From IMG/VR virus record IMGVR_UViG_2687453529_000004: a DNA stretch of 45,019 bases. The stretch is one strand, 5' to 3'. Of the stretch, positions 3,084-45,019 are shown in pieces (within the stretch, counting starts at the first letter, position 1; the number at the start of each line of letters is the position of its first letter). The notes below the pieces were generated by a model. That model ran no database searches, was not told the DNA's origin, and saw only the letters and a program-made list of their open reading frames with translations. The position numbers and the translations under genes were made by a program. This DNA is from a virus (lineage: Duplodnaviria > Heunggongvirae > Uroviricota > Caudoviricetes).

Positions 3084-5446
3084 TATACGTATTCCTTAAG
3101 CTGCGTATCTGACAATGCTCTGTTCCAGAAACGGAGGTTTTTTATATGACCATTAAGGTGTCGTAATCCTGTCGTCGTTTGCCCCCCGATTCGAATCACG
3201 GCTGCTTCACGAATATATTTCCATACTGTTTTGGTTTCAGTGCTTATATGCTTATTTGCAAATGAGCATGTCATGCCGTCAGCCTTAACCCTGAATCCCA
3301 TAACGAGATCTCTTACTCCGCATGACTCATATACACGCCGGTTAGCCCCGCCTATATCGCAATACGAATAACCATCCTGACTGATAGTTCCAGAAGAACC
3401 AAACCCCATAATAAATGGGCCTCCGGACTGGTGATTTTCTGAATCAATGACACGCGGTGCAGCATTATGAGAAATAAACCAGTTTTTATGGACTTCCACC
3501 ATGAACGTAAAAGGCATGGTATACATATTTTTCATCAGCGGAAATTTACATAAATCTGATGCACGAGTCGCTGGCTCTGTTGTCGTTATGATAAAGGAAG
3601 TTGCACAAGCACCATACTCGAATTGCGGGGTGGTTACTTCTATCCAGTCACCTGTTGCAAAAGCCCCCACTGCTCTGTCGGCTGCAATTTGCAGCTGCGT
3701 ACCAACCATTCCCCATTCTGGCAGACATTTCAGTGTTGCCTGAAAATATATCCATCCACTACCAGGGTCGATTTCAAAGTTTGCTGTTAATAGCTGGGCA
3801 TTACCACCCGTAATTTGTAGTTCATGAGTCTGTAATGACAAATAGGCGTCACAAAGGAAAGTGTATCCTTCCGAGTTATACCGTTCAAAACGGATACGTG
3901 CGCGAACATTGAGATCACTTCTTACCCTGAACGACGCGGTAACATACGGACCTTTACTGTACTGATCATCGCCAGTCACATCTATGCCTTTATTACCAGC
4001 AACTGTGCATATATTTCTCCCTGTTGTCGTTCCTGCTATGTCGCTTCCTACTGTGAAACGTCCATATTTAAACTCAAATTCATCTGTTGATGATGTTACA
4101 GATATACCACCGCTTTTATTCCACGCATCAGGATTAAAACTATTTACGAACATGTTTGTTCGCTGATTCTCTATCAGCAAACCATATTTTTCAAAACGAG
4201 GAGCGTTATTCCCTGCCACGGTAATATGCCCGGACTTATCAATATACGTTGCTGATGAAGCGCGGCTAAATTGGCATATGCCATTAACAGGCATTGTTAT
4301 TTCATCACTGCCGATGGTTATTGTTTTATAGCCCGGGGCATACCCTGTTATCGCTTCCAGAGAATCATTCAAGGGTAGCCAGATATCAGGAAGCGGAGGG
4401 ACTGAAGCAGGATCAGCGGCATCTTCTGCAATCCGGGCTGCATTCTCTGCTCTTGTTGCGGCTGACGTTGCTTCTATCTCGCTGGCTGCTGCTTTTGTTT
4501 CACTCGTCTTTGCGTTAGTTTCACTGGTTTTTGCAGCTTTTTGGCTATTAGCTGCCGCACTTGCAGAACCAGCTGCGGCACTCTCGCTTTGGGCCGCTGC
4601 ATCCTGACTGTTTTTTGCCGCAGTTTCGCTGGCTTTGGCATTCGTTTCGCTGGTCTTCGCTGCCGTCTGGCTGGACTTTGCGTTAGTTTCACTCGTCTTC
4701 GCAGCTTTCTGGCTGTTAGCCGCAGCAGTTGCTGATCCAGCTGCTGAAGTCGCAGAACCGGCTGCTGCGCTCTCGCTTTCAGCTGCTGCAGCCTGGCTAT
4801 TTTTCGCCGCAGTTTCACTGGCTTTGGCATTCGTTTCGCTGGTTTTCGCTGCCGTCTGGCTGGACTTTGCGTTGGTTTCGCTCGTCTTTGCGGCTGTCTC
4901 GCTGTTTTTCGCGTTGGTTTCTGATTTTTTGGCTGCTGTCGCGGAGTTTGCCGATGCAGTCTGCGAGGACGCTGCCGCCTGTGCGCTGTTAGCTGCATTC
5001 GTTTCTGAGGTTTTCGCCGCGTTCTTCGATGATGCCGCTGCAGTTTCGGATTTCTTTGCCACCGCTGCGCTCTGAGAGGCGGCTTCGGCGTTGCGTGCCG
5101 CTTCTTCCACCATTGCCTCAAAACGACGCAATGCCTCCGGCATGACATCATCTTCCGTCATGGCACCGAGAAAATCATTCAGCGTACCTGGTCTGGAACC
5201 TTCATAGACGGTAATGGTTCCGGCATGTGAAGGCGGAAAACCTTCAACCAGCAGGGTGACGCTGTACTGGCCATACTCAACATCCATGCTGTAACGCCCG
5301 GCTTCATCCGGATTTTCAGAGGCCACCGTGTTCACCAGTACCGTGGTGCTGTTACGCTTTGCCTTCAGTTGAATAGTGCAGTTCTGTATTGGTTTTCCCG
5401 CACCATCTTTCAGCACACCTGAGATTTTTACTGCTGCCATATCCAC
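3083..5446 (-). CDS. stf: Side tail fibre protein with internal tandem Ala/Ser/Thr/Lys-rich repeats and a LamG-like C-terminal domain
   Basis: 787 aa ORF immediately downstream of lom; N-terminus resembles lambda Stf; repeats KTSETNAK/AAKNSQ visible in the translation. Confidence 0.8.
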   Translation of the reverse strand: MDMAAVKISGVLKDGAGKPIQNCTIQLKAKRNSTTVLVNTVASENPDEAGRYSMDVEYGQYSVTLLVEGFPPSHAGTITVYEGSRPGTLNDFLGAMTEDDVMPEALRRFEAMVEEAARNAEAASQSAAVAKKSETAAASSKNAAKTSETNAANSAQAAASSQTASANSATAAKKSETNAKNSETAAKTSETNAKSSQTAAKTSETNAKASETAAKNSQAAAAESESAAAGSATSAAGSATAAANSQKAAKTSETNAKSSQTAAKTSETNAKASETAAKNSQDAAAQSESAAAGSASAAANSQKAAKTSETNAKTSETKAAASEIEATSAATRAENAARIAEDAADPASVPPLPDIWLPLNDSLEAITGYAPGYKTITIGSDEITMPVNGICQFSRASSATYIDKSGHITVAGNNAPRFEKYGLLIENQRTNMFVNSFNPDAWNKSGGISVTSSTDEFEFKYGRFTVGSDIAGTTTGRNICTVAGNKGIDVTGDDQYSKGPYVTASFRVRSDLNVRARIRFERYNSEGYTFLCDAYLSLQTHELQITGGNAQLLTANFEIDPGSGWIYFQATLKCLPEWGMVGTQLQIAADRAVGAFATGDWIEVTTPQFEYGACATSFIITTTEPATRASDLCKFPLMKNMYTMPFTFMVEVHKNWFISHNAAPRVIDSENHQSGGPFIMGFGSSGTISQDGYSYCDIGGANRRVYESCGVRDLVMGFRVKADGMTCSFANKHISTETKTVWKYIREAAVIRIGGQTTTGLRHLNGHIKNLRFWNRALSDTQLKEYV
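4470..5090. repeat. Tandem ~200 bp coding repeats inside stf
   Basis: Near-identical DNA blocks (e.g. tgccgcagtttcgctggctttggcattcgtttcgctgg at ~4611 and ~4806); repeated peptides in the forward and shadow frames. Confidence 0.7.
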
Positions 5447-15235: not shown

Positions 15236-15976
15236 TTAACTGGCGGTGACGGTGATTTCTGCAACCGCAGCAAACTCACCATTACCGGATACAATCGGAA
15301 TGTTGACCTTGCCTGCAGCAACGCCATTCACGGTGATGGTCATACCACTGACCGACACGGTGGCTTTTGTTTTATCCGCTGACACCGCACGGAAGCTCTT
15401 GTCGGTTGCGCCTTCCGGCTGGAATGCCACGGTCAGCGTGGTGCTCTTCCCTTTCACTACGGAAGCGCTGGCTGGCGTCACGGTCATACCGGTTACCGCT
15501 GTTACCGTGCTGCGATCTTCTGCCATCGACGGACGTCCCACATTGGTGACTTTCACCGTGCGGGTGATCACTTCCTTCGCCGTCACCGCCTTACCGATAC
15601 TGCTGACCCAGCCGCGGAACACATCGACCGTGCCGTTCGGGAAGCGGATTTTATAGGCACGGGTATCACCTTCATTAAACCACGCCAGCAGCGCCTGCTG
15701 CCCCTGCTCTCCGGGCATCCACGCCAGCGTGAAGCTGGTATCTCCGGCGGATTTCTGCCCCTGTCCGGTCGCGGTCCAGTCCGCATCTTCATCATCGAGA
15801 TAACTGTCGTCATAGGACTCAGCGGTCAGTTCGCCGGGCGTCAGGTCTTTAACCTTTGCCAGACGCGACCAGTCATTGTCTGAAAGCGGGTTTGCATAAG
15901 GGTCGCCGCTCCCGTTATAAACCCACAGGGTGGTCCCGGCCCCTTTCACCGGTGCCAGAGGATTTGGTGTTGGCAT
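15236..15976 (-). CDS. V: Major tail protein V
   Basis: 246 aa from [18 protein letters not shown]; matches recalled lambda gpV, including the C-terminal Ig-like domain. Confidence 0.9.
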
Positions 15977-30471: not shown

Positions 30472-30500
30472 AAAAAAACCAGCCTTTGGGGAGGCTGGCT
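30472..30500 (-). terminator. Rho-independent terminator downstream of Q (tR'-like)
   Basis: Minus-strand hairpin CCAGCCT-N6-AGGCTGG followed by a T7 run. Confidence 0.45.
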
Positions 30501-30598: not shown

Positions 30599-30991
30599 TT
30601 ATTTCGAACAATCAGCATCCATCTCCAATCGGAGATCCAACACCATCAGCATACCCTCCACTACGCCCTCAGCTTTCTGAAGCATCCTGCCAACCCAACA
30701 ATCAGATCGCCCATGCTTACGTGCAAGCGCCATAAAAGTCATGCCGCCGACATAATAGTCCACCAATAAATCATGCAAATCGCTGTTGTTCTTTTTCAGA
30801 CGGGCCATGCACCCGCAAATGATCATCGCGTCATCGTCACAACATTGTGGGCGAGATTTTACTTTTGAAGTAATTAATCCCTTAAAACCGGCGGCAATGG
30901 ACGACCAGGTCACATCTTCATGATTATTAGCCGCCCACGCTCCCCAACGCTCAAGAACCATCTGAATATCACGCATCAACTTACTCCACAA
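30599..30991 (-). CDS. quuD: Late-gene antiterminator Q (QuuD-like)
   Basis: ~125-130 aa with Cys-rich zinc-binding segment; located between rusA and the lysis region; start codon uncertain. Confidence 0.7.
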
Positions 30992-36392: not shown

Positions 36393-37090
36393 ACCCTTGC
36401 TCCTTTCAGCCCAAACTTAGCTTTGATTTCTGCGATCTTCGCCAGAGCCTGTGCACGATTTAGAGGTCTACCGCCCATGACAGGAAGTTGTTTTACTGGT
36501 TCAGGTATAGCCTCACCACGGTTAATTCGTGCGGTCATACAGGACAGTTCATCGGCAGCCTTGCGCCGTAATTCCGCGTCAGTCAACGCATTGGCCCGCA
36601 TGTTCTGATACAGGTTGGTAACCAGCCAGTAGTGCGCGTTTGATTTCCACGGATAAGACTCTGCATCCGGATACAGCCCGCGCTTCCGGCAATACTCGTA
36701 AACCATATCAACCAGCTCGCTGGCGTTTGGCAGCCCGGCGGTAACGGATGCTTCTTCCCGGCACCAGGCGACAAACTGCCCGGGTGATGGCAGGAATGGT
36801 CGATTCTGCCGACGGGCTACGCGCATTCCAGCGTTAACCTGTTCCATTGTGGTGATCCCGTTTTCCCGAAAAGCCAGCACCCACTGGCGGCGGATTTCGT
36901 TCAGTTCATTCTGGTCACGGTTAGCCAGGCTCGCCGGGAAAGTTGCCAGTAACTGGCTGAACACACCGTTGATGATCTGCGCTACCTGCTGTACCTGCGG
37001 CTTTTCGTCGTACTGTTCCGGCATGTTGTTGGCGATCCGACGCATCTGCTCACGGTCAAAGTTAACCATCTGTGCGGCGATGTTTTTCAT
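36389..37090 (-). CDS. P: Replication protein P (helicase loader)
   Basis: 233 aa, matches recalled lambda gpP. Confidence 0.9.
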   Translation of the reverse strand: MKNIAAQMVNFDREQMRRIANNMPEQYDEKPQVQQVAQIINGVFSQLLATFPASLANRDQNELNEIRRQWVLAFRENGITTMEQVNAGMRVARRQNRPFLPSPGQFVAWCREEASVTAGLPNASELVDMVYEYCRKRGLYPDAESYPWKSNAHYWLVTNLYQNMRANALTDAELRRKAADELSCMTARINRGEAIPEPVKQLPVMGGRPLNRAQALAKIAEIKAKFGLKGARV

Positions 37091-38016
37091 AAATCCACCC
37101 CGTAAATCCAGTCAGTGTTTGTCAGGTCGAGTTTTGGTTTGCTGGCTATCATGCCTGCCTGTTGCTTGTTACGGTTGATTTCGAGTTGGGTCCACTTGTC
37201 GCGGAGTTTGGCCGGACTTAGCACGTTACCGGACCAGAAGTTGTCCTGGCATGCCCAGCGGAAAAGCACGCACATGTCGCGGTGGTTACGTCCGTCACGT
37301 TCACGCATCAGGCGGATATCGTTAGCCCACCCTGCAAAATTCGGTTTTCTGGCTGATGGTGCGATGGTCTTCACCATGTCAAACATCCACTCTGCGGCGG
37401 TCAGGTCTTCTGCTGTCCCCCACTTGCTGCCGCTCTGAATTGCAGCATCTGGTTTCACCACAGGAAGATCGTTTTCTGGTTGGTCAGAGGATTCGCCAGA
37501 ATTCTCGGACGAAAAAGGTTTTATATTGTCTTTTGTTAGTTTGTCTTTTGTGTTTACCTGATTCGGGTAAACGCCTTTACCTGATTTGGGTAAACTTTTC
37601 TTACCTGATTCAGGTAAATTTACCTCTTTCAGGTAAACTTTATTTTTCTTACCTGATTCGGGTAATGTTGACCATTCACTGACCACATTATTAATACCGA
37701 TATTCCGCCCGCTCTGAATCAAAATCCCACGCTTTACCAGAACACTTTTTGCAGCAGAACACTTGTGCGGTAATATCCCGGTCAATCCGGACAGTTGCTC
37801 GTTGCTCACCCAATCCAGTTTTTTATTAAAGCCATATGTTTTGCGCATGACAGCCAGGAAGACCAGAAGCTGGTGCTGTGTTAATCCGGCCAGCATCACA
37901 GCTTCCAGCAACTCATTTGCAATGCGCGTATAACCATCATCGAGATCTGCCACGCGCGGCTCCTTTTGTGCCGCATCCGGCACTGGAAAATTGAATATCT
38001 CAGCAGTGTTTGCCAT
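37087..38016 (-). CDS. O: Replication initiator protein O
   Basis: Start MANTAEIFNF with GGAGG RBS; N-terminal DNA-binding domain differs from lambda O; iterons inside the gene; C-terminal region lambda-O-like. Confidence 0.85.
   Translation of the reverse strand: MANTAEIFNFPVPDAAQKEPRVADLDDGYTRIANELLEAVMLAGLTQHQLLVFLAVMRKTYGFNKKLDWVSNEQLSGLTGILPHKCSAAKSVLVKRGILIQSGRNIGINNVVSEWSTLPESGKKNKVYLKEVNLPESGKKSLPKSGKGVYPNQVNTKDKLTKDNIKPFSSENSGESSDQPENDLPVVKPDAAIQSGSKWGTAEDLTAAEWMFDMVKTIAPSARKPNFAGWANDIRLMRERDGRNHRDMCVLFRWACQDNFWSGNVLSPAKLRDKWTQLEINRNKQQAGMIASKPKLDLTNTDWIYGVDL
37553..37669. repeat. Replication origin iterons within O (five ~19 bp TTACCTGATTCGGGTAA-like repeats)
   Basis: Five direct repeats with ~22 bp periodicity, each an internal palindrome; adjacent AT-rich stretch at ~37500-37545. 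Confidence 0.75.
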
Positions 38017-38102
38017 AATTCCTCCCGCAATGAGTGTGTTACGATTTGCACCTGAAAGTCGGTTCTGTTCCAGCAGACCGGCTTTCGCCATTTCTGAACC
38101 TG

Positions 38103-38642
38103 TCATATCGCCCCCAGCATGGTAGTAACCATCGCCATCAATGGACCAGCCAGATCTGGGTCCACACGAAACATCGATACAATACCTTCACTAATTTCCT
38201 TCAGTTTCTGGTGGCGTGGTGCGTTGAGAATGACAGCCTGTTTTGCCTCACTGAGTTCCTTTTCCATTTCAGCCAACCTGGCCATGAAGCTATCCTGCTC
38301 AACCAGGTAACCGCGATATTCCAGCGGTAGTACCGCCAGAATTGCCGGGGTCAGTTCACGCACGTTATTTCGGTATTTTTCAGAATCGAATTTGTTATCG
38401 AGGAAGCGGAACAGCTTCTGGCGTGCACGGCTGACATCATCAGGGAAATCGATGGTGCCGCCGCCCTGCTCCCGATACTCATTCACAATGAGTGTGGCAA
38501 CGACATCCTGATTATCTACAGCCGACCAGGCGCGGACGGCATCACGGATTTTTTCGTGGCCTGGCACCTGTTTTGTTTGAGAACGATTTATCACCGCAGT
38601 CGGGCTAAATCCGCTAGTCTGTTGGTATGGAAGTGGTTGCAT
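38103..38642 (-). CDS. CII-like / YdaT-like early regulatory protein
   Basis: 179 aa ORF in the cII position immediately after cro; family assignment tentative. Confidence 0.45.
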   Translation of the reverse strand: MQPLPYQQTSGFSPTAVINRSQTKQVPGHEKIRDAVRAWSAVDNQDVVATLIVNEYREQGGGTIDFPDDVSRARQKLFRFLDNKFDSEKYRNNVRELTPAILAVLPLEYRGYLVEQDSFMARLAEMEKELSEAKQAVILNAPRHQKLKEISEGIVSMFRVDPDLAGPLMAMVTTMLGAI

Positions 38643-38711
38643 AATTGACTCCTTTAGTTTGAATTGACTGTTAAGTTGATTGCTTATTGTTAAAGAGCGT
38701 GAAATGGAAAT

Positions 38712-38942
38712 TTAAGCTGCGTTCTTTTCGGTGTGTGGAAACAACTTCGGAAGATCCGGGCGAATCTGGTATGCCTTCACTACTCCACCAGTAGCCGTAA
38801 CAATGCTGCCGACATGTTCAGGGGATACCTTTGCTTTGTTGTGAAGCCACTTATAGACGGCCTGCTGTGAAACTTCGCAAGCAGCGCCCAGTTTCTTTTG
38901 TGAACCAACGATATTGATCGCTGTTTTGATAGCTGGGTTCAT
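38712..38942 (-). CDS. cro: Cro-like repressor
   Basis: 76 aa HTH protein (QKKLGAACEVSQQAVYKW) divergent from cI, GGAGG RBS. Confidence 0.7.
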   Translation of the reverse strand: MNPAIKTAINIVGSQKKLGAACEVSQQAVYKWLHNKAKVSPEHVGSIVTATGGVVKAYQIRPDLPKLFPHTEKNAA

Positions 38943-39046
38943 AACAACCTCCGTGGTTAATTTGAATCAAGATTAAAACTATGGTTGTTTTTAGTCAACA
39001 ACCATTTTCGTTTGATGGAATAAAACCTTGGTTGTACATTTGGACT
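38943..39046. promoter_or_regulatory. oR / pR / pRM divergent promoter-operator region
   Basis: Minus-strand TTGACT-17-TAATCT (pR) upstream of cro; + strand TTGATG-17-TACATT near-leaderless before cI; several CAAC...GTTG palindromes. Confidence 0.6.
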
Positions 39047-39736
39047 ATGAAAACAACACTCTCAGAAAGACTTAAAGAAGCCAGATTAGCGCGAGGCCTT
39101 ACACAAAAGGCGCTTGGGGATTTGGTCGGGGTTAGCCAGGCTGCTATTCAGAAAATCGAAACAGGGAAAGCTAATCAAACAACTAAAATCGTGGAGATCG
39201 CGAACGCTTTGGGTGTGCGCGCAGAATGGTTATCTTCTGGCGTTGGAAATATGTCAGACAGTACAGTGCAACCAATACAATCAACTGTCAGCCATTCCAA
39301 ATACTTCAAGATTGACGTTCTTGATATAGAAGTCAGTGCTGGGCCGGGAGTCATCAACCGTGAGTTTGTAGAAGTTCTACGCTCGGTTGAGTACTCGTTT
39401 GACGATGCTCGTCACATGTTCGATGGTAGGAAGGCGGAAAATATCCGCATCATTAACGTGCGTGGTGACAGCATGTCAGGAACGATCGAACCAGGTGATC
39501 TGCTGTTCGTTGATATCACAGTTAAATCTTTCGACGGTGATGGTATCTATGCGTTTCTGTACGACGACACAGCCCATGTAAAGCGCCTGCAAATGATGAA
39601 GGATAAGCTGCTGGTCATCTCTGATAACAAAAGCTACTCACCGTGGGACCCGATCGAGAAAGACGAGATGAACCGGGTGTTCATCTTCGGTAAGGTTATT
39701 GGGAGCATGCCGCAGACATATAGGAAGCATGGGTAG
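39047..39736 (+). CDS. cI: CI-type prophage repressor (HTH plus S24 LexA-like peptidase domain)
   Basis: 229 aa from MKTTLSERLKEAR; HTH QKALGDLVGVSQAAIQKIE; C-terminal GDSM Ser and downstream Lys motifs. Confidence 0.85.
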   Translation: MKTTLSERLKEARLARGLTQKALGDLVGVSQAAIQKIETGKANQTTKIVEIANALGVRAEWLSSGVGNMSDSTVQPIQSTVSHSKYFKIDVLDIEVSAGPGVINREFVEVLRSVEYSFDDARHMFDGRKAENIRIINVRGDSMSGTIEPGDLLFVDITVKSFDGDGIYAFLYDDTAHVKRLQMMKDKLLVISDNKSYSPWDPIEKDEMNRVFIFGKVIGSMPQTYRKHG

Positions 39737-39857
39737 TACCAATTAAAAATTATCAACTGGGCATTGTGCTCATTCAGTAAAGAACTAATTCCTATCTTTG
39801 CTCTAGGTAGTAATATTAAGCCACCGCAATAATATCTTTACCTAACGGCGTAAGAAT

Positions 39858-39885
39858 CCCGGTCACCGTGCCGGGTTTTCTTTTG
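39858..39885 (+). terminator. Rho-independent terminator after cI
   Basis: CCCGG-N8-CCGGG hairpin followed by TTTTCTTTT. Confidence 0.5.
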
Positions 39886-40004
39886 CCCTCCCCTCATCAC
39901 ACACACCGTTAAAAAAACCACCATAACCTCGCTTCAGTTATCGCTATGCGATTCAAGTCACAAAATAAATCCATCCTAAATACAACCAGTTATATCTAAA
40001 ACAA

Positions 40005-40085
40005 CCAATAAAACAACTTTTGTTGTTGACGATAAAACAACTATAGTTTTAAATAAGTTCATCGCAACAACACAACGATACGGCA
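40005..40085 (+). promoter_or_regulatory. pL-like promoter with operator palindromes (oL)
   Basis: TTGACG-17-TTAAAT on the + strand; palindromes CAACTTTTGTTG and AACTATAGTT overlap it. Confidence 0.5.
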
Positions 40086-40330
40086 ACTACCTGATTCACC
40101 GTTGCGATGACCGCTTAGATCCGCAGTTTGAATTTCAGCAGGCTTCGGGGAGTGCGAGGGGTGAAACGGACGCGTGAACGTCGGTGTGACCAGCTGAAAT
40201 TAACTCAACATTTCATACCTCAGTCGCTTCAACGAGGCGGCTTAGTTATGACAACCGGCGGCCATCCACCGCCTGAATATGCGCAGAAGTCTCTATATGT
40301 TCAGCAGCCCAGCTTACGGGCGGAGTTTTT

Positions 40331-40537
40331 ATGGTTCATCAACATTACGGAACACAGACCGTTAATCGCGGCGCGGTCATGCCAGGAATGCTGGTCAAAC
40401 ACAAAGATGGTACCTGGACTGCATCAGCTAATTTACGCGGACGGCTTTATCTGCATCGCGGCATCGAGCGCACTTATACCAGTGATTTGCTCGTGGAAGT
40501 TTTTCTCGACGGACGCGGTAACGGCCTGAATCACTAA
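40331..40537 (+). CDS. Hypothetical protein (68 aa) between pL and gam
   Basis: ORF only; ends exactly where lambda-like gam leader sequence begins. Confidence 0.3.
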   Translation: MVHQHYGTQTVNRGAVMPGMLVKHKDGTWTASANLRGRLYLHRGIERTYTSDLLVEVFLDGRGNGLNH

Positions 40538-40613
40538 CCCCCCTTTCCTGTTTTCCTAATCAGCCTGGCATTTCGCGGGCGATATTTTCACAGCCATTTT
40601 CAGGAGTTCAGCC

Positions 40614-40910
40614 ATGAACGCTTATTACATTCAGGATCGTCTTGAGGCTCAGAGCTGGGCGCGTCACTACCAGCAGCTCGCCCGTGAAGAGAAAGAGGCA
40701 GAACTGGCAGACGACATGGAAAAAGGTCTGCCCCAGCACCTGTTTGAATCACTCTGCATCGATCATTTACAACGCCACGGGGCCAGCAAAAAAGCCATTA
40801 CCCGTGCGTTTGATGACGATGTTGAGTTTCAGGAGCGCATGGCAGAACACATCCGGTACATGGTTGAAACCATTGCTCACCACCAGGTTGATATTGATTC
40901 AGAGGTATAA
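40614..40910 (+). CDS. gam: Gam, RecBCD inhibitor (short GamS form)
   Basis: 98 aa [42 protein letters not shown]...; matches recalled lambda GamS. Confidence 0.85.
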
Positions 40911-40915
40911 AACGG

Positions 40916-41701
40916 ATGAGTACAGCACTCGCAACGCTGGCTGGGAAGCTGGCTGAACGCGTCGGCATGGATTCTGTCGACCCACAGGAACTGATCACCA
41001 CTCTTCGCCAGACGGCATTTAAAGGTGATGCCAGCGATGCGCAGTTCATCGCATTGCTGATCGTCGCCAACCAGTACGGCCTTAATCCGTGGACGAAAGA
41101 AATTTACGCCTTCCCTGACAAGCAGAACGGCATCGTTCCGGTGGTGGGCGTTGATGGCTGGCCCCGTATCATCAATGAAAACCAGCAGTTTGATGGCATG
41201 GACTTTGAGCAGGACAATGAATCCTGCACATGCCGGATTTACCGCAAGGACCGCAATCATCCGATCTGCGTTACCGAGTGGATGGATGAATGCCGCCGCG
41301 AACCATTCAAAACCCGCGAAGGCAGAGAAATCACGGGGCCGTGGCAGTCGCATCCCAAACGGATGTTACGGCATAAAGCCATGATTCAGTGTGCCCGTCT
41401 CGCCTTCGGATTTGCTGGTATCTATGACAAGGATGAAGCCGAGCGCATTGTCGAAAATACCGCATACACTGCAGAACGTCAGCCGGAACGCGACATCACT
41501 CCGGTTAACGATGAAACCATGCGGGAGATTAACACTCTGCTGATCGCCCTGGATAAAACATGGAATGACGACTTATTGCCGCTCTGTTCCCAGATATTTC
41601 GCCGCGACATTCGCGCATCGTCAGAACTGACACAGGCCGAAGCAGTGAAAGCTCTTGGTTTCCTGAAACAGAAAGCCACTGAGCAGAAGGTGGCAGCATG
41701 A
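40916..41701 (+). CDS. bet: Bet single-strand annealing recombinase
   Basis: 261 aa, matches recalled lambda Bet. Confidence 0.95.
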
Positions 41702-42378
41702 CACCGGACATTATCCTGCAGCGTACCGGGATCGACGTGAGAGCTGTCGAACAGGGGGATGATGCATGGCACAAATTACGGCTCGGCGTCATCACCGCTT
41801 CAGAAGTTCACAACGTGATAGCCAAGCCCCGCTCAGGAAAGAAGTGGCCTGACATGAAAATGTCCTACTTCCACACCCTGCTGGCTGAGGTTTGCACCGG
41901 TGTGGCTCCGGAAGTTAATGCTAAGGCGCTGGCATGGGGAAAACAGTACGAGAACGACGCCAGAACTCTGTTTGAATTCACTTCCGGCGTGAATGTTACT
42001 GAATCCCCGATCATCTATCGCGACGAAAGTATGCGCACCGCCTGCTCTCCCGATGGTTTATGCAGTGACGGCAATGGCCTTGAGCTGAAATGCCCGTTTA
42101 CCTCCCGGGATTTCATGAAGTTCCGGCTCGGTGGTTTCGAGGCCATAAAGTCGGCTTACATGGCCCAGGTGCAGTACAGCATGTGGGTGACACGAAAAGA
42201 TGCCTGGTACTTTGCCAACTATGACCCGCGTATGAAGCGTGAAGGACTGCATTATGTCGTGGTTGAGCGGGATGAAAAGTACATGGCGAGTTTTGACGAG
42301 ATGGTGCCGGAGTTCATCGAAAAAATGGACGAGGCACTGGCTGAAATTGGTTTTGTATTTGGGGAGCAATGGCGATGA
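41698..42378 (+). CDS. exo: Exo 5'-3' exonuclease
   Basis: 226 aa, matches recalled lambda Exo. Confidence 0.95.
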
Positions 42379-42557
42379 CGCATCCTCACGATAATATCCG
42401 GGTAGGCGCGATCACTTTCGTCTACTCCGTTACAAAGCGAGGCTGGGTATTTCCCGGCCTTTCTGTTATCAGAAATCCACTGAAAGCACAGCGGCTGGCT
42501 GAGAAGATAAATAATAAACGGGAGGCGGTATGCACAAAGCATCTCCTGTTGAGTTAA
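42369..42557 (+). CDS. Lambda orf60a-like protein
   Basis: 62 aa, [20 protein letters not shown]...; position immediately after exo. Confidence 0.6.
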
Positions 42558-42721
42558 GAACGAGTATTGAGATGGCACATAGCCTTGCTCAAATTGGAGT
42601 CAGGTTTGTGCCAATACCAGTAGAAACAGACGAAGAATTTCATACGTTAGCCACATCCCTTTCACAAAAGCTGGAAATGATGGTGGCGAAAGCAGAAGCA
42701 GATGAGAGAGACCAGGTATGA
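42530..42721 (+). CDS. Lambda orf63-like protein
   Basis: 63 aa; position as in lambda. Confidence 0.6.
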   Translation: MHKASPVELRTSIEMAHSLAQIGVRFVPIPVETDEEFHTLATSLSQKLEMMVAKAEADERDQV

Positions 42722-43112
42722 CAACCACTGAATGCATTTTTCTGGCAGCGGGCTTCATATTCTGTGTGCTTATGCTTGCCGACATGGGGCTTGTTTAATG
42801 ACACCTCAGCAAGAAAACGCCCTTCGCAGCATTGCCCGTCAGGCTAATTCTGAAATCAAAAAAAGCCAGACAGCAGTTTCCGGATAAAAACGTCGATGAC
42901 ATTTGCCGTAGCGTACTGAAGAAGCACCGCGAAACGGTAACGCTGATGGGATTCACACCAACTCATTTAAGCCTGGCGATCGGCATGTTAAACGGCGTCT
43001 TTAAGGAACGATGAACATGAAAAGCAAAATTATCAGGGAGCTACAGGCTCCTTTTTTATTGTTCGCATTCACCCTCAAGCGTATTAACCAACAGTTCAGG
43101 GATTAATGAAAG

Positions 43113-43331
43113 ATGGCAGACATCATTGATTCAGCATCAGAAATCGAAGAATTACAGCGCAATACAGCAATAAAAATGCGTCGTCAGAACTACCAGACTG
43201 TATCCGCAACTCATTGTTGTGAGTGTGGCGATCCGATAGCTGAGCGAAGACGCCTGGCTGTTCAGGGTTGTCGGACTTGTGCAAGTTGCCAGGAGGAGAT
43301 CGAACTTAAGAACAAACAATGGGGACTGTGA
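43113..43331 (+). CDS. TraR/DksA-family C4 zinc-finger protein
   Basis: 72 aa with CxxC-N17-CxxC (CCECGDPIAERRRLAVQGCRTCASCQEE). Confidence 0.8.
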   Translation: MADIIDSASEIEELQRNTAIKMRRQNYQTVSATHCCECGDPIAERRRLAVQGCRTCASCQEEIELKNKQWGL

Positions 43332-43378
43332 TGGCCTCAAAGCAGCAAATTTCAACATCGTCCAACTGAGGTGTAAAA

Positions 43379-43657
43379 ATGTTCAGAATCATTTTTCCTA
43401 ACACCTGGTACGTCGACCACCACGGCACTCCCTGCAAAATCCTGCGTTCTACCCACAACAAAGTTCACTACATCCGAAAAGGCAGAACATGTATCGCCAG
43501 CATGTTCCGCTTTAATCATGACTTTGAACCTGTGAATAAAGCTGATGCAGATCGGATAGCAGAAGAGATCGAAACGGCAGAACACATTAAGAAGTTACGT
43601 GACATGCGTTCAAAAAGCAGAGGTAACCATGGAATCATACAGCCTCACACTCGATGA
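43379..43657 (+). CDS. Hypothetical protein (92 aa)
   Basis: ORF only. Confidence 0.4.
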   Translation: MFRIIFPNTWYVDHHGTPCKILRSTHNKVHYIRKGRTCIASMFRFNHDFEPVNKADADRIAEEIETAEHIKKLRDMRSKSRGNHGIIQPHTR

Positions 43658-44000
43658 GGCCTGTCAGTTTCTTAAGATATCCAGACCAACCGCCACCAAC
43701 TGGATACGAACAGGCCGCCTACAGGCAACACGTAAAGATCCAACCAAGCCAAAATCTCCTTACCTCACAACACGGCAAGCCTGCATTGCGGCGCTTCAGT
43801 CTCCGCTGCATACTGTCCAGGTGAGCGCGGGTGATGGCATAACAGAGGAAAGAAAATGTCACTCTTCCGCAGAAATGAAATATGGTATGCCTCGTATTCG
43901 CTCCCGGGCGGGAAACGAATTAAGGAATCTCTTGGCACAAAGGACAAGCGGCAAGCTCAGGAGTTGCACGACAAGCGAAAAGCAGAACTCTGGCGAGTAG
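43629..44000 (+). CDS. xis: Excisionase-like DNA-binding protein, overlapping int start
   Basis: ORF from [31 protein letters not shown] (HTH-like) directly upstream of and overlapping int; exact stop uncertain. Confidence 0.5.
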
Positions 44001-45019
44001 AAAAGCTAGGGGATTTACCTGATGTCACTTTTGAAGAGGCCTGCCTAAGATGGCTTGAGGAAAAAGCTGATAAAAAATCTCTCGATTCAGATAAAAGCCG
44101 GATTGAGTTCTGGCTTGAACATTTTGAGGGTATAAGGCTTAAAGATATCTCGGAGGCAAAGATTTACTCTGCTGTAAGCAGAATGCATAACAGAAAGACG
44201 AAAGAAATATGGAAACAGAAAGTTCAGGCCGCCATCAGGAAAGGTAAAGAACTGCCTGTTTATGAACCAAAGCCAGTATCAACTCAGACAAAGGCAAAGC
44301 ATCTTGCCATGATAAAGGCCATTCTCCGTGCTGCAGAACGCGACTGGAAGTGGCTGGAAAAAGCGCCTGTCATCAAGATACCAGCGGTCAGAAACAAGCG
44401 AGTCAGATGGCTGGAAAAGGAGGAAGCAAAACGCCTTATTGATGAGTGCCCCGAACCACTGAAATCTGTCGTCAAGTTTGCGCTGGCAACTGGTCTGAGA
44501 AAGTCGAACATCATAAATCTGGAATGGCAACAAATCGACATGCAGCGACGAGTTGCCTGGGTGAATCCAGAAGAGAGCAAATCAAACCGCGCCATTGGTG
44601 TGGCGCTGAACGATACCGCCTGTAAAGTGTTGCGTGATCAAATAGGCAAGCATCACAAATGGGTGTTTGTACATACCAAGGCGGCTAAGCGAGCAGATGG
44701 AACATCAACGCCTGCGGTCAGGAAGATGCGCATCGACAGCAAGACATCATGGCTATCAGCTTGTCGTCGTGCAGGAATTGAAGATTTCCGTTTCCATGAC
44801 CTCAGACACACCTGGGCAAGCTGGCTGATTCAGTCAGGCGTCCCATTATCAGTGCTTCAGGAAATGGGCGGATGGGAGTCCATAGAAATGGTTCGTAGGT
44901 ATGCTCACCTTGCGCCTAATCATTTGACAGAGCATGCGAGGAAAATAGACGACATTTTTGGTGATAATGTCCCAAATATGTCCCACTCTGGAATTATGGA
45001 GGATATAAAGAAGGCGTAA
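43856..45019 (+). CDS. intD: Tyrosine site-specific integrase (IntD-like)
   Basis: 387 aa; C-terminal catalytic motifs HDLRHTWAS and RRYAH-type Tyr region; matches recalled DLP12 IntD; stop at window end. Confidence 0.9.

Follow-up and report, generated by a model that had tools for sequence, protein, structure and literature searches.

The interval between cI and gam

The window analysed here is a 45,019-nucleotide (nt) stretch of tailed-phage DNA (Caudoviricetes; IMG/VR record IMGVR_UViG_2687453529_000004), the + strand of which corresponds to the leftward strand of phage lambda; features are on this strand unless otherwise stated. Our subject is the interval between the repressor gene cI (39047..39736) and gam (40614..40910), which measures 877 bp, in agreement with the ~880 bp given in an earlier note made from the letters alone (the sequence-only reading). 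It belongs to a lambdoid prophage that is Bievrevirus/DLP12-like, in which it forms the immunity-distal end together with the early-left control region. From left to right it holds the remnant of an accessory gene, a terminator, the left operators (OL) with the promoter pL, a 270-nt leader (40061-40330) that encodes no conserved protein, and a kil gene; downstream follow gam, bet, exo, small lambda-like open reading frames (ORFs), xis and int, in that order. The sequence-only reading had described a compact pL region without N-type antitermination, and this is borne out: neither an N homologue nor a nutL site was found.

With tblastn, nothing in the 45-kb window matched the queries taken from lambda (N, cIII, kil, ral, ea10, sieB), phi80 (N) and HK022 (Nun), all E-values being above 0.1 (above 0.5 for lambda N, phi80 N and HK022 Nun; P22 gp24 and phi21 N were not among the queries). 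No ORF of the interval matches an N family in Pfam or PHROG, N is annotated in no relative, and Q is the sole antiterminator listed for the related phage 4A7. Between 40060 and 40330 there is no boxA, either rrn-type within two mismatches or lambda-type within one, and hence nothing recognisable as nutL. The whole segment that separates pL from kil in lambda (nutL, N, tL1, ral, tL2, ea10, cIII) is absent. Of the genes reported missing by the sequence-only reading, N, cIII, ral and a kil of lambda type are indeed lacking by tblastn, but a kil gene of KilR type is present.

Because the lambda N-tL1-tL2 segment is missing, transcripts from pL meet no strong predicted intrinsic terminator on the way to bet and exo; a + strand scan of 40060-42438 gave a single candidate, a weak 5-bp hairpin identical to lambda at 40563-40580. 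Just 3' of exo, however, the terminator scan identifies an intrinsic terminator (42439..42470) with 100% identity to lambda ~31287-31257, a hairpin that, from the lambda map, we take to be tL3. It lies 2.4 kb downstream of the leader start in the window; of 100 loci with this leader, 97 have it too, ~2.2 kb downstream. A second terminator-like hairpin with a T run follows at 43035..43062, seen also in 82 of 100 related loci, and the TraR-like gene, xis and int are all located 3' of it. A scan for promoter-like sites on the + strand found none in 40000-45019, and thus none before xis. The expression of bet, exo, xis and int without N had been considered puzzling in the sequence-only reading; since tL3 is retained and a second hairpin follows it, it is xis and int, and not bet and exo, that pose the problem.

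The promoter pL and its leader

The pL-like promoter with operator palindromes proposed from the sequence is confirmed in its operators by inverted and direct repeats shared with the right operators (OR). Within the OL and pL region (39976..40054), the OL sites are placed at ~39998-40016, 40010-40028 and 40034-40052; the last of these, 19 nt long, is 95% complementary to 38973-38991 at OR, and more AAAACAAC sites are present within 39998-40028. As read from the letters, pL would have TTGACG (40026-40031) as its -35 element and either TTAAAT (40049-40054) or TATAGT (40042-40047) as its -10, and would share with pR a layout of TTGAC(G/T), a 17-nt operator-containing spacer and a weak -10. Because a consensus promoter scan did not pick up pL, we infer its start, which is probably near 40061 (~40055-40062), with transcription running rightward. 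A survey of 79 IMG/VR loci, with 58 unique variants, shows two unrelated haplotypes over 39980-40060 and a single family for everything from 40061 onward, the haplotype border being at 40060/61. A third immunity type, in an O157 strain, joins the leader at 40095.

The leader begins with a 5'-terminal hairpin (40059..40110) that has a 10-bp stem and a 32-nt loop, with a minimum free energy of -13.1 kcal/mol and a z-score of -2.66; none of 200 shuffles folds as well. Its variants retain the pairing (A-U to G-U), with only singletons breaking it, and in the third immunity type the 5' arm is swapped out. The loop includes an 11-nt half-site TACCTGATTCA (40088-40098; E 2.3) of the ori iterons, which stand as at least four TACCTGATTCGGGTAAA-like copies at 37551-37664, inside the O gene; its presence in the leader is probably due to chance.

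For the leader core (40095..40210) no function is assigned. It contains a hairpin, ACGGACG-CGUGAA-CGUCGGU (40166-40185), and the stretch 40110-40210 has no excess of stability over shuffles (z ~0). Among 22 aligned variants, picked from 39 unique variants in the 79 loci, there are no compensatory pairs, only transitions that preserve wobble pairing. A co-variation of 40145 with 40166, considered as a compensatory pair, falls in no helix and was treated as linkage. The RNAalifold consensus and the single-sequence fold disagree beyond the first hairpin, and conservation of the leader is not above that at the synonymous sites of kil. A search for another copy of the leader found none in the rest of the window, the pR side included, or in phage 4A7. 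At the 3' end, directly 5' of a conserved hairpin described below, is a C-rich, G-poor stretch of UCAAC repeats (40196-40212), in two copies here and three in some relatives through a 5-nt duplication, which could be a loading site for Rho. A 12-mer of the pR side, AATCAACTTAAC, has a merely approximate counterpart on pL.

Resemblance to known antitermination RNAs is slight. A covariance model built from 27 put sequences, the stems of which covary strongly, gave over the whole window with filters off a best hit of 9.2 bits (E 0.75) at 15578, and nothing in the early region. The Rfam scan of 37000-42000 at E<=1 returned a sole match, a chance rliD inside the ori iterons, and is a weak scan that also misses the putL-like RNA of HK639. 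Local alignments of the leader to those of HK639, the IMG/VR locus L099, phi80, KO-TP1 and HK022 are not significant (z 0.8-1.7). When put and nut leaders are aligned with it globally, the scores are marginal (z 1.8-2.3) and stem from the first 20 nt; the highest, for HK639, has z 2.3, a level reached by 7 of 500 shuffles. The pL transcripts of this type open like those of the N and put types, with an A/C-rich mini-hairpin motif CAUCG(A/C)AAC(G/A)A(A/C)ACA(U/A)(C/A)GA (window 40061-40079; also in L003, L004, L099 and L307). The 'M3-like RNA' motif of HK639 is not present in the window. In another IMG/VR locus, L184, the stretch at its AAACCATGCGTCGG match is a hybrid leader, in which an rrn-type boxA (…GCGTCGGAACCGCTCTTTAACAATCTGG…) stands directly after put stem I, where put would have stem II.

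A conserved two-hairpin block and an upstream ORF

Immediately downstream of the core is a block of two conserved hairpins (40211-40273), which is a real RNA structure. Hairpin A (40214..40250; z -2.35) sequesters, in the pairing at its base, the AUG (40248-40250) that opens a small upstream ORF; across 33 variants, 98.9% of cells are paired and seven pairs have compensatory changes, compared with 33-50% paired in controls slid along the alignment. Hairpin B (40257..40273), GGCGG-CCAUCCA-CCGCC, is invariant in the same 33 variants, which were chosen by a pattern that spans it. CobraSix retains it despite a different reading frame, and the constraint is therefore on the RNA. In HK639, hairpin B has a T run and is annotated as a terminator, whereas the window's hairpin B has no T run. 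The block matched no Rfam family in the region scan at E<=1.

With the GCGCAGAAGUCU that follows hairpin B, the block extends over 40211-40297 and is common to the left operons of phi80-, HK639-, Klebsiella-, Enterobacter- and Salmonella-phages (for example L004 2501-2600, L003 2501-2580, L307 2001-2100, L308 2001-2090 and L309 2001-2100), where it is mostly located directly 3' of a tL1-type terminator.

The upstream ORF, MTTGGHPPP... (40248..40330), was defined by comparison of frames in 79 loci. In 77 of these it is in frame with kil, giving a 96-residue long form; those 77 have an extra A at ~40321 that is missing in the window and in one other sequence variant. The 1-nt deletion unlinks the upstream ORF from kil in the window; it also weakens the kil Shine-Dalgarno sequence, from GCAGGAG to GCGGAG. 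Two common polymorphisms are synonymous in the upstream-ORF frame. The block would control translation of the upstream ORF and kil, and perhaps the access of Rho.

What stands in front of this block differs between phages. In phi80 it is found 3' of N and tL1A, inside the annotated t-L1 region, and in HK639 it is 3' of putL, two genes and terminators. In two IMG/VR loci, L099 and L101, it is directly 3' of putL, in the order cI, accessory gene, pL, putL, block, kil, gam, bet, exo. A census of 193 loci that have the block found the window's leader in front of it in 117, other sequence in 69, most of it ending in a GC hairpin and T run, and put in seven, two of which adjoin it directly. Because the block has N and tL1A, putL or the leader in front of it across loci, the leader appears to occupy the antitermination slot, the position of nutL-N or putL, an argument purely from position that draws on the census and on the L099 architecture.

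kil, gam and the mosaic joint

The 68-residue ORF of the interval (40331..40537), which has its own GGAG Shine-Dalgarno sequence, had been called an orphan. It is instead a kil gene of the KilR type, predicted to encode an inhibitor of FtsZ and septation. Residues 1-68 of the product match profile positions 13-80 of 83 in PHROG_294, 'Kil protein for bacterial septation inhibition' (E 2.1e-37), and it matches model positions 1-70 of 73 in NCBIfam NF008465, the FtsZ inhibitor KilR of Rac (E 3e-18); in RefSeq it is named 'phage encoded cell division inhibitor protein'. The NF008465 score, 65.5 bits, is below the cut-off of 92, so that the subfamily threshold is not reached. The protein is thus a KilR homologue outside that narrow subfamily, for which FtsZ inhibition is predicted from the profile matches.

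Identity with lambda restarts at 40538, exactly one base after the kil stop codon. The coordinate given in the sequence-only reading is thus correct, as is its statement that the GamS start alone is left, but the joint had been placed inside a gene; because lambda homology resumes right after the stop, and both kil genes end in CACTAA, it is located at a gene boundary. The joint is followed by a lambda-identical spacer (40538..40613) with a remnant of GamL and the Shine-Dalgarno sequence of GamS. The first 16 codons of GamL overlapped kil in lambda and were lost with it, and codons ~17-40 persist as untranslated DNA, as shown by tblastn with GamL.

The description of gam as truncated was overstated. 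The gene (40614..40910) encodes 98 residues that match the Pfam Gam model (PF06064), itself of 98 residues, from 1 to 98 (E 3.7e-65), and GamS alone is a competent RecBCD inhibitor (PMC5218532). From these matches the 98-residue Gam is judged to be the normal functional GamS form. The window's Gam is ~89% identical to lambda Gam over residues 19-138, and in the DNA that codes for residues 41-138 the two are almost identical.

The Arg-rich ORF

A 133-codon Arg-rich ORF (40128..40529), already suspected to be of doubtful reality, is an artefact and not a gene: its frame is cut in relatives, and it matches no family in Pfam or PHROG. A stop at 40221 or a 5-nt insertion interrupts it in ~28 of the 79 loci, where it ends after 20 or 29 codons, and in some others it is 125 residues long. 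Its distal two thirds, beyond 40331, are simply kil read out of frame through the 1-nt deletion, the +1 frame of kil being open over its whole length, to 40529. Its head is (V/M)KRTRERRCDQLK, and the Arg codons form both arms of a CG-rich hairpin. No relatives of the peptide were found beyond the same locus and its deletion derivatives, among 50,697 phage records and 5.8 billion proteins, and the idea that it is a fossil or miniature N, having its matches confined in this way, was dropped.

Flanking features, the pR side and relatives

The repressor upstream is of the cI type (helix-turn-helix plus S24 peptidase, 229 residues; Pfam HTH_3 and Peptidase_S24, PHROG_4 E 9e-73). Between cI and pL is a slot for accessory (moron) genes (39737-39885), which is in its empty form in 26 of 68 loci and is occupied by a SIR2-family gene in an O157 relative. 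In the window, a ~72-nt remnant of the 3' end of an ASCH/GevA-type gene stays behind (39778..39853), identified from annotations and by alignment to L006, in which 3543-3624 lines up with window 39700-39781 and 5001-5190 with window 39778-39970. The ~1.38 kb of 4A7 and PhiR47_2 missing here comprises a GevT-like gene and most of the ASCH/GevA gene. An intrinsic terminator found in the terminator scan, CCCGGTCACCGTGCCGGG with a T run (39858..39885), closes the cI/moron transcript and is common to relatives with different morons, whose matches begin at query position 122.

On the - strand, Pfam and PHROG profiles identify a cro of YdaS type (38942..38712) and a cII-like gene of YdaT type (38642..38103). 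Between them, 13 nt past the cro stop, the pR transcript carries an rrn-type boxA, GCTCTTTAACAA (38687..38698, - strand), that agrees at 12 of 12 positions and has no other exact copy in the window. It is retained across ~50 loci that have this cro. No boxB hairpin is seen after it, whereas N-type relatives have the same boxA followed by the hairpin GGCTGAATTATCAGCC. From cro to Q there are only weak terminator candidates on the - strand, and scans with PHROG, which covered the early-right genes, and with Pfam and NCBIfam yielded no antiterminator but the Q-like protein (30599..30991, - strand). The Q-like gene is followed by a strong terminator, AGCCAGCC...GGCTGGTT with a T run (30477-30500, - strand). 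The nin region is DLP12-like, with QacE/EmrE, a large serine recombinase, NinB, HNH and RusA. On the left side, small pL-operon ORFs of the DUF1317, DUF1382 and DUF4222 families have no assigned function.

The interval is present at 100% identity in E. coli FDAARGOS_497 and at 99.5% in phage Turner; its relatives include the Bievrevirus phages 4A7 and 4C10, as well as Perceval and the PhiR series. Turner, 4A7 and the PhiR series are deposited as plaque-forming or induced phages with the same region. Of 5426 complete E. coli genomes, 2002 contain the pL-leader-kil module (39980-40540) with at least 80% of it covered, nearly always as one chromosomal copy per genome. The module itself is thus ordinary, being widespread and already in public records. 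The literature searched held no description of how an N-less pL module of this kind works; for another N-less lambdoid phage, a recent paper merely guesses 'put-like' (PMC12315714).

Comparison with known systems

As in lambda, the order is cI, moron slot and OL/pL with an operator between -35 and -10, and the leftward operon ends gam-bet-exo-tL3-xis-int, with aligned stretches of at least 92% identity from gam on. Unlike lambda, the window has none of N, nutL, tL1, ral, tL2, ea10 and cIII, its kil is of KilR type (lambda Kil has 47 residues), and gam has the GamS start only.

The put RNAs of HK022 and HK639 offer a parallel, in that there is no N protein and a ~150-nt non-coding element begins at the pL start site, upstream of terminators; moreover, the putL of L099 and L101 adjoins the same block, with the same KilR-type kil-gam-bet-exo order. 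In contrast to HK022 and HK639, the leader has no match to the put model, no two-stem V architecture with GGCGGG/CGGCAAU loops and no counterpart at pR. Members of the put class are defined by their action on RNA polymerase via its beta-prime zinc-binding domain, with no protein factors involved. HK639 itself (L310 2911-2970) bears annotations for a putL-like RNA in its left arm and a different one, the 'M3-like RNA', after the cII-like gene in its right arm. With phi80 the window shares the block, 40211-40273 being 84-86% identical to the stretch right after tL1A, and a downstream kil of KilR type, but the nutL (boxA), 98-residue N and tL1A hairpin that precede the block in phi80 are lacking.

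As in the Rac prophage, the 68-residue protein aligns over its full length to the KilR model and the cro and cII-like genes belong to the YdaS and YdaT families; the sub-cut-off KilR score and the S24-cleavable, cI-type repressor set the window apart. The exact GCTCTTTAACAA on the pR transcript resembles rrn boxA systems, from which the window differs in having no such site in the pL leader and neither boxB nor boxC as a recognised partner.

How might pL transcripts reach xis and int?

The reading that we tentatively favour, although we give it rather less than an even chance, is that the pL operon is N-independent by architecture, with the leader serving mainly Kil and polarity, and with xis and int expressed by leak-through. 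The two-hairpin block would then set the amount of toxic Kil made, while translation of the upstream ORF would, via the block, shield the leader from Rho. No dedicated early antiterminator would act at pL, and the fraction of strong-promoter transcripts that leaks past tL3 and the second hairpin would reach xis and int. At pR, the boxA would recruit NusB/NusE and suppress Rho polarity toward Q.

Several points weigh against this. Processive early antitermination is used by the lambdoid phages studied so far, and the leader is placed precisely in the nutL-N/putL slot, with a put-like length (~150 versus 143 nt) and a shared motif in its first 20 nt. The intact tL3 in 97 of 100 loci with the leader may allow too little leak-through for excision, and tL3 serves as a transcription terminator in CRIM cloning vectors (PMC2532685). 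Terminators that depend on Rho lie beyond the reach of the prediction used, and, since 4A7-type relatives do not have the pR boxA, that boxA provides no general answer.

Alternatively, the leader, ~40061-40210, could be a cis-acting RNA that makes RNA polymerase resistant to termination, with a put-like function in an unrelated sequence, and so takes it past tL3 and the second terminator. We regard this as somewhat unlikely. The slot equivalence (N and tL1A in phi80, putL in L099 and L101, the leader in 117 of 193 loci), a beginning at the transcription start like that of putL, the joining, at 40061 or 40095, to three or more immunity types, the absence of a conserved ORF from the leader and the retention of tL3 downstream are all consistent with such a role, as is the observation that the two arms of HK639 also carry unlike RNAs. 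Weak resemblances point the same way: GAAACGG...CGUCGG is similar to the put stem I helix and ACGGCAA to put positions 58-64, to which the shared 5' motif and the global alignment with HK639 (z 2.3) may be added. However, the put covariance model is unmatched and no local alignment with a put or nut leader reaches significance, the core shows neither excess stability nor compensatory change in its 22 variants nor conservation beyond that of kil synonymous sites, and pR has no partner element. The residues essential in put, U28, G35-A9, A64 and the 3-7 duplex (PMC9378689), have no counterpart in the leader. In its strongest form, that phages have in the ~150-nt leader 40061-40210 a third kind of early antiterminator, a cis RNA of non-put sequence that works with no N-like protein and carries pL transcription through tL3, this proposal is a little more doubtful still; the adjoining two-hairpin block may be part of the same device.

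Could a factor acting in trans at pL, either a small phage protein or host Nus factors at a non-canonical leader site, have escaped recognition? The perfect rrn-type boxA on the pR transcript suggests that the phage engages Nus factors, and the pL operon has several small ORFs of the DUF1317, DUF1382 and DUF4222 families to which no function is assigned, but 5' of tL3 the coding capacity is limited to kil, gam, bet and exo. Moreover, the leader has no boxA-like site within two mismatches, the protein family scans yield the Q-like antiterminator alone, and even the pR boxA is missing in 4A7-type relatives, making such a factor improbable. Slightly less probable again is that xis and int have one or more promoters of their own 3' of tL3, with no need for read-through. 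The window does encode a cII-like activator of the YdaT family, and lambda int has a cII-dependent promoter, pI; however, no promoter-like site was found on the + strand in 40000-45019, and pI, being inside xis, gives no Xis, which is needed for excision. Least credible, and very improbable indeed, is a miniature N, in which the Arg-rich frame, (V/M)KRTRERRCDQLK... from a GTG at 40161, would be a real peptide binding a leader hairpin. Its KRTRERR resembles the arginine-rich motif TRRRERR of lambda N, a GGGGAG is placed 7 nt 5' of the GTG, and the first 13 codons are nearly invariant. Against this are the early ends of the frame in ~28 of 79 loci, the failure of the searches to find relatives beyond the locus, and the use of the Arg codons as the two arms of a CG-rich hairpin; a 20-residue peptide would also be without the parts of N that bind NusA and polymerase.

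Processive early antitermination, whether N or put RNA drives it, is regarded as a hallmark of the lambdoid phages, and the present pL module is without both, yet tL3 precedes xis and int. If the leader is an antiterminator RNA, it would represent a new class of polymerase-modifying RNA, and a third kind of antiterminator would be at work in the prophages of about one third of sequenced E. coli genomes. If it is not, the lambdoid early programme can run without early antitermination. The two-hairpin block, which matched no Rfam family in our scan, now has a defined structure. Either outcome for the leader bears on the prediction of prophage inducibility and excision.

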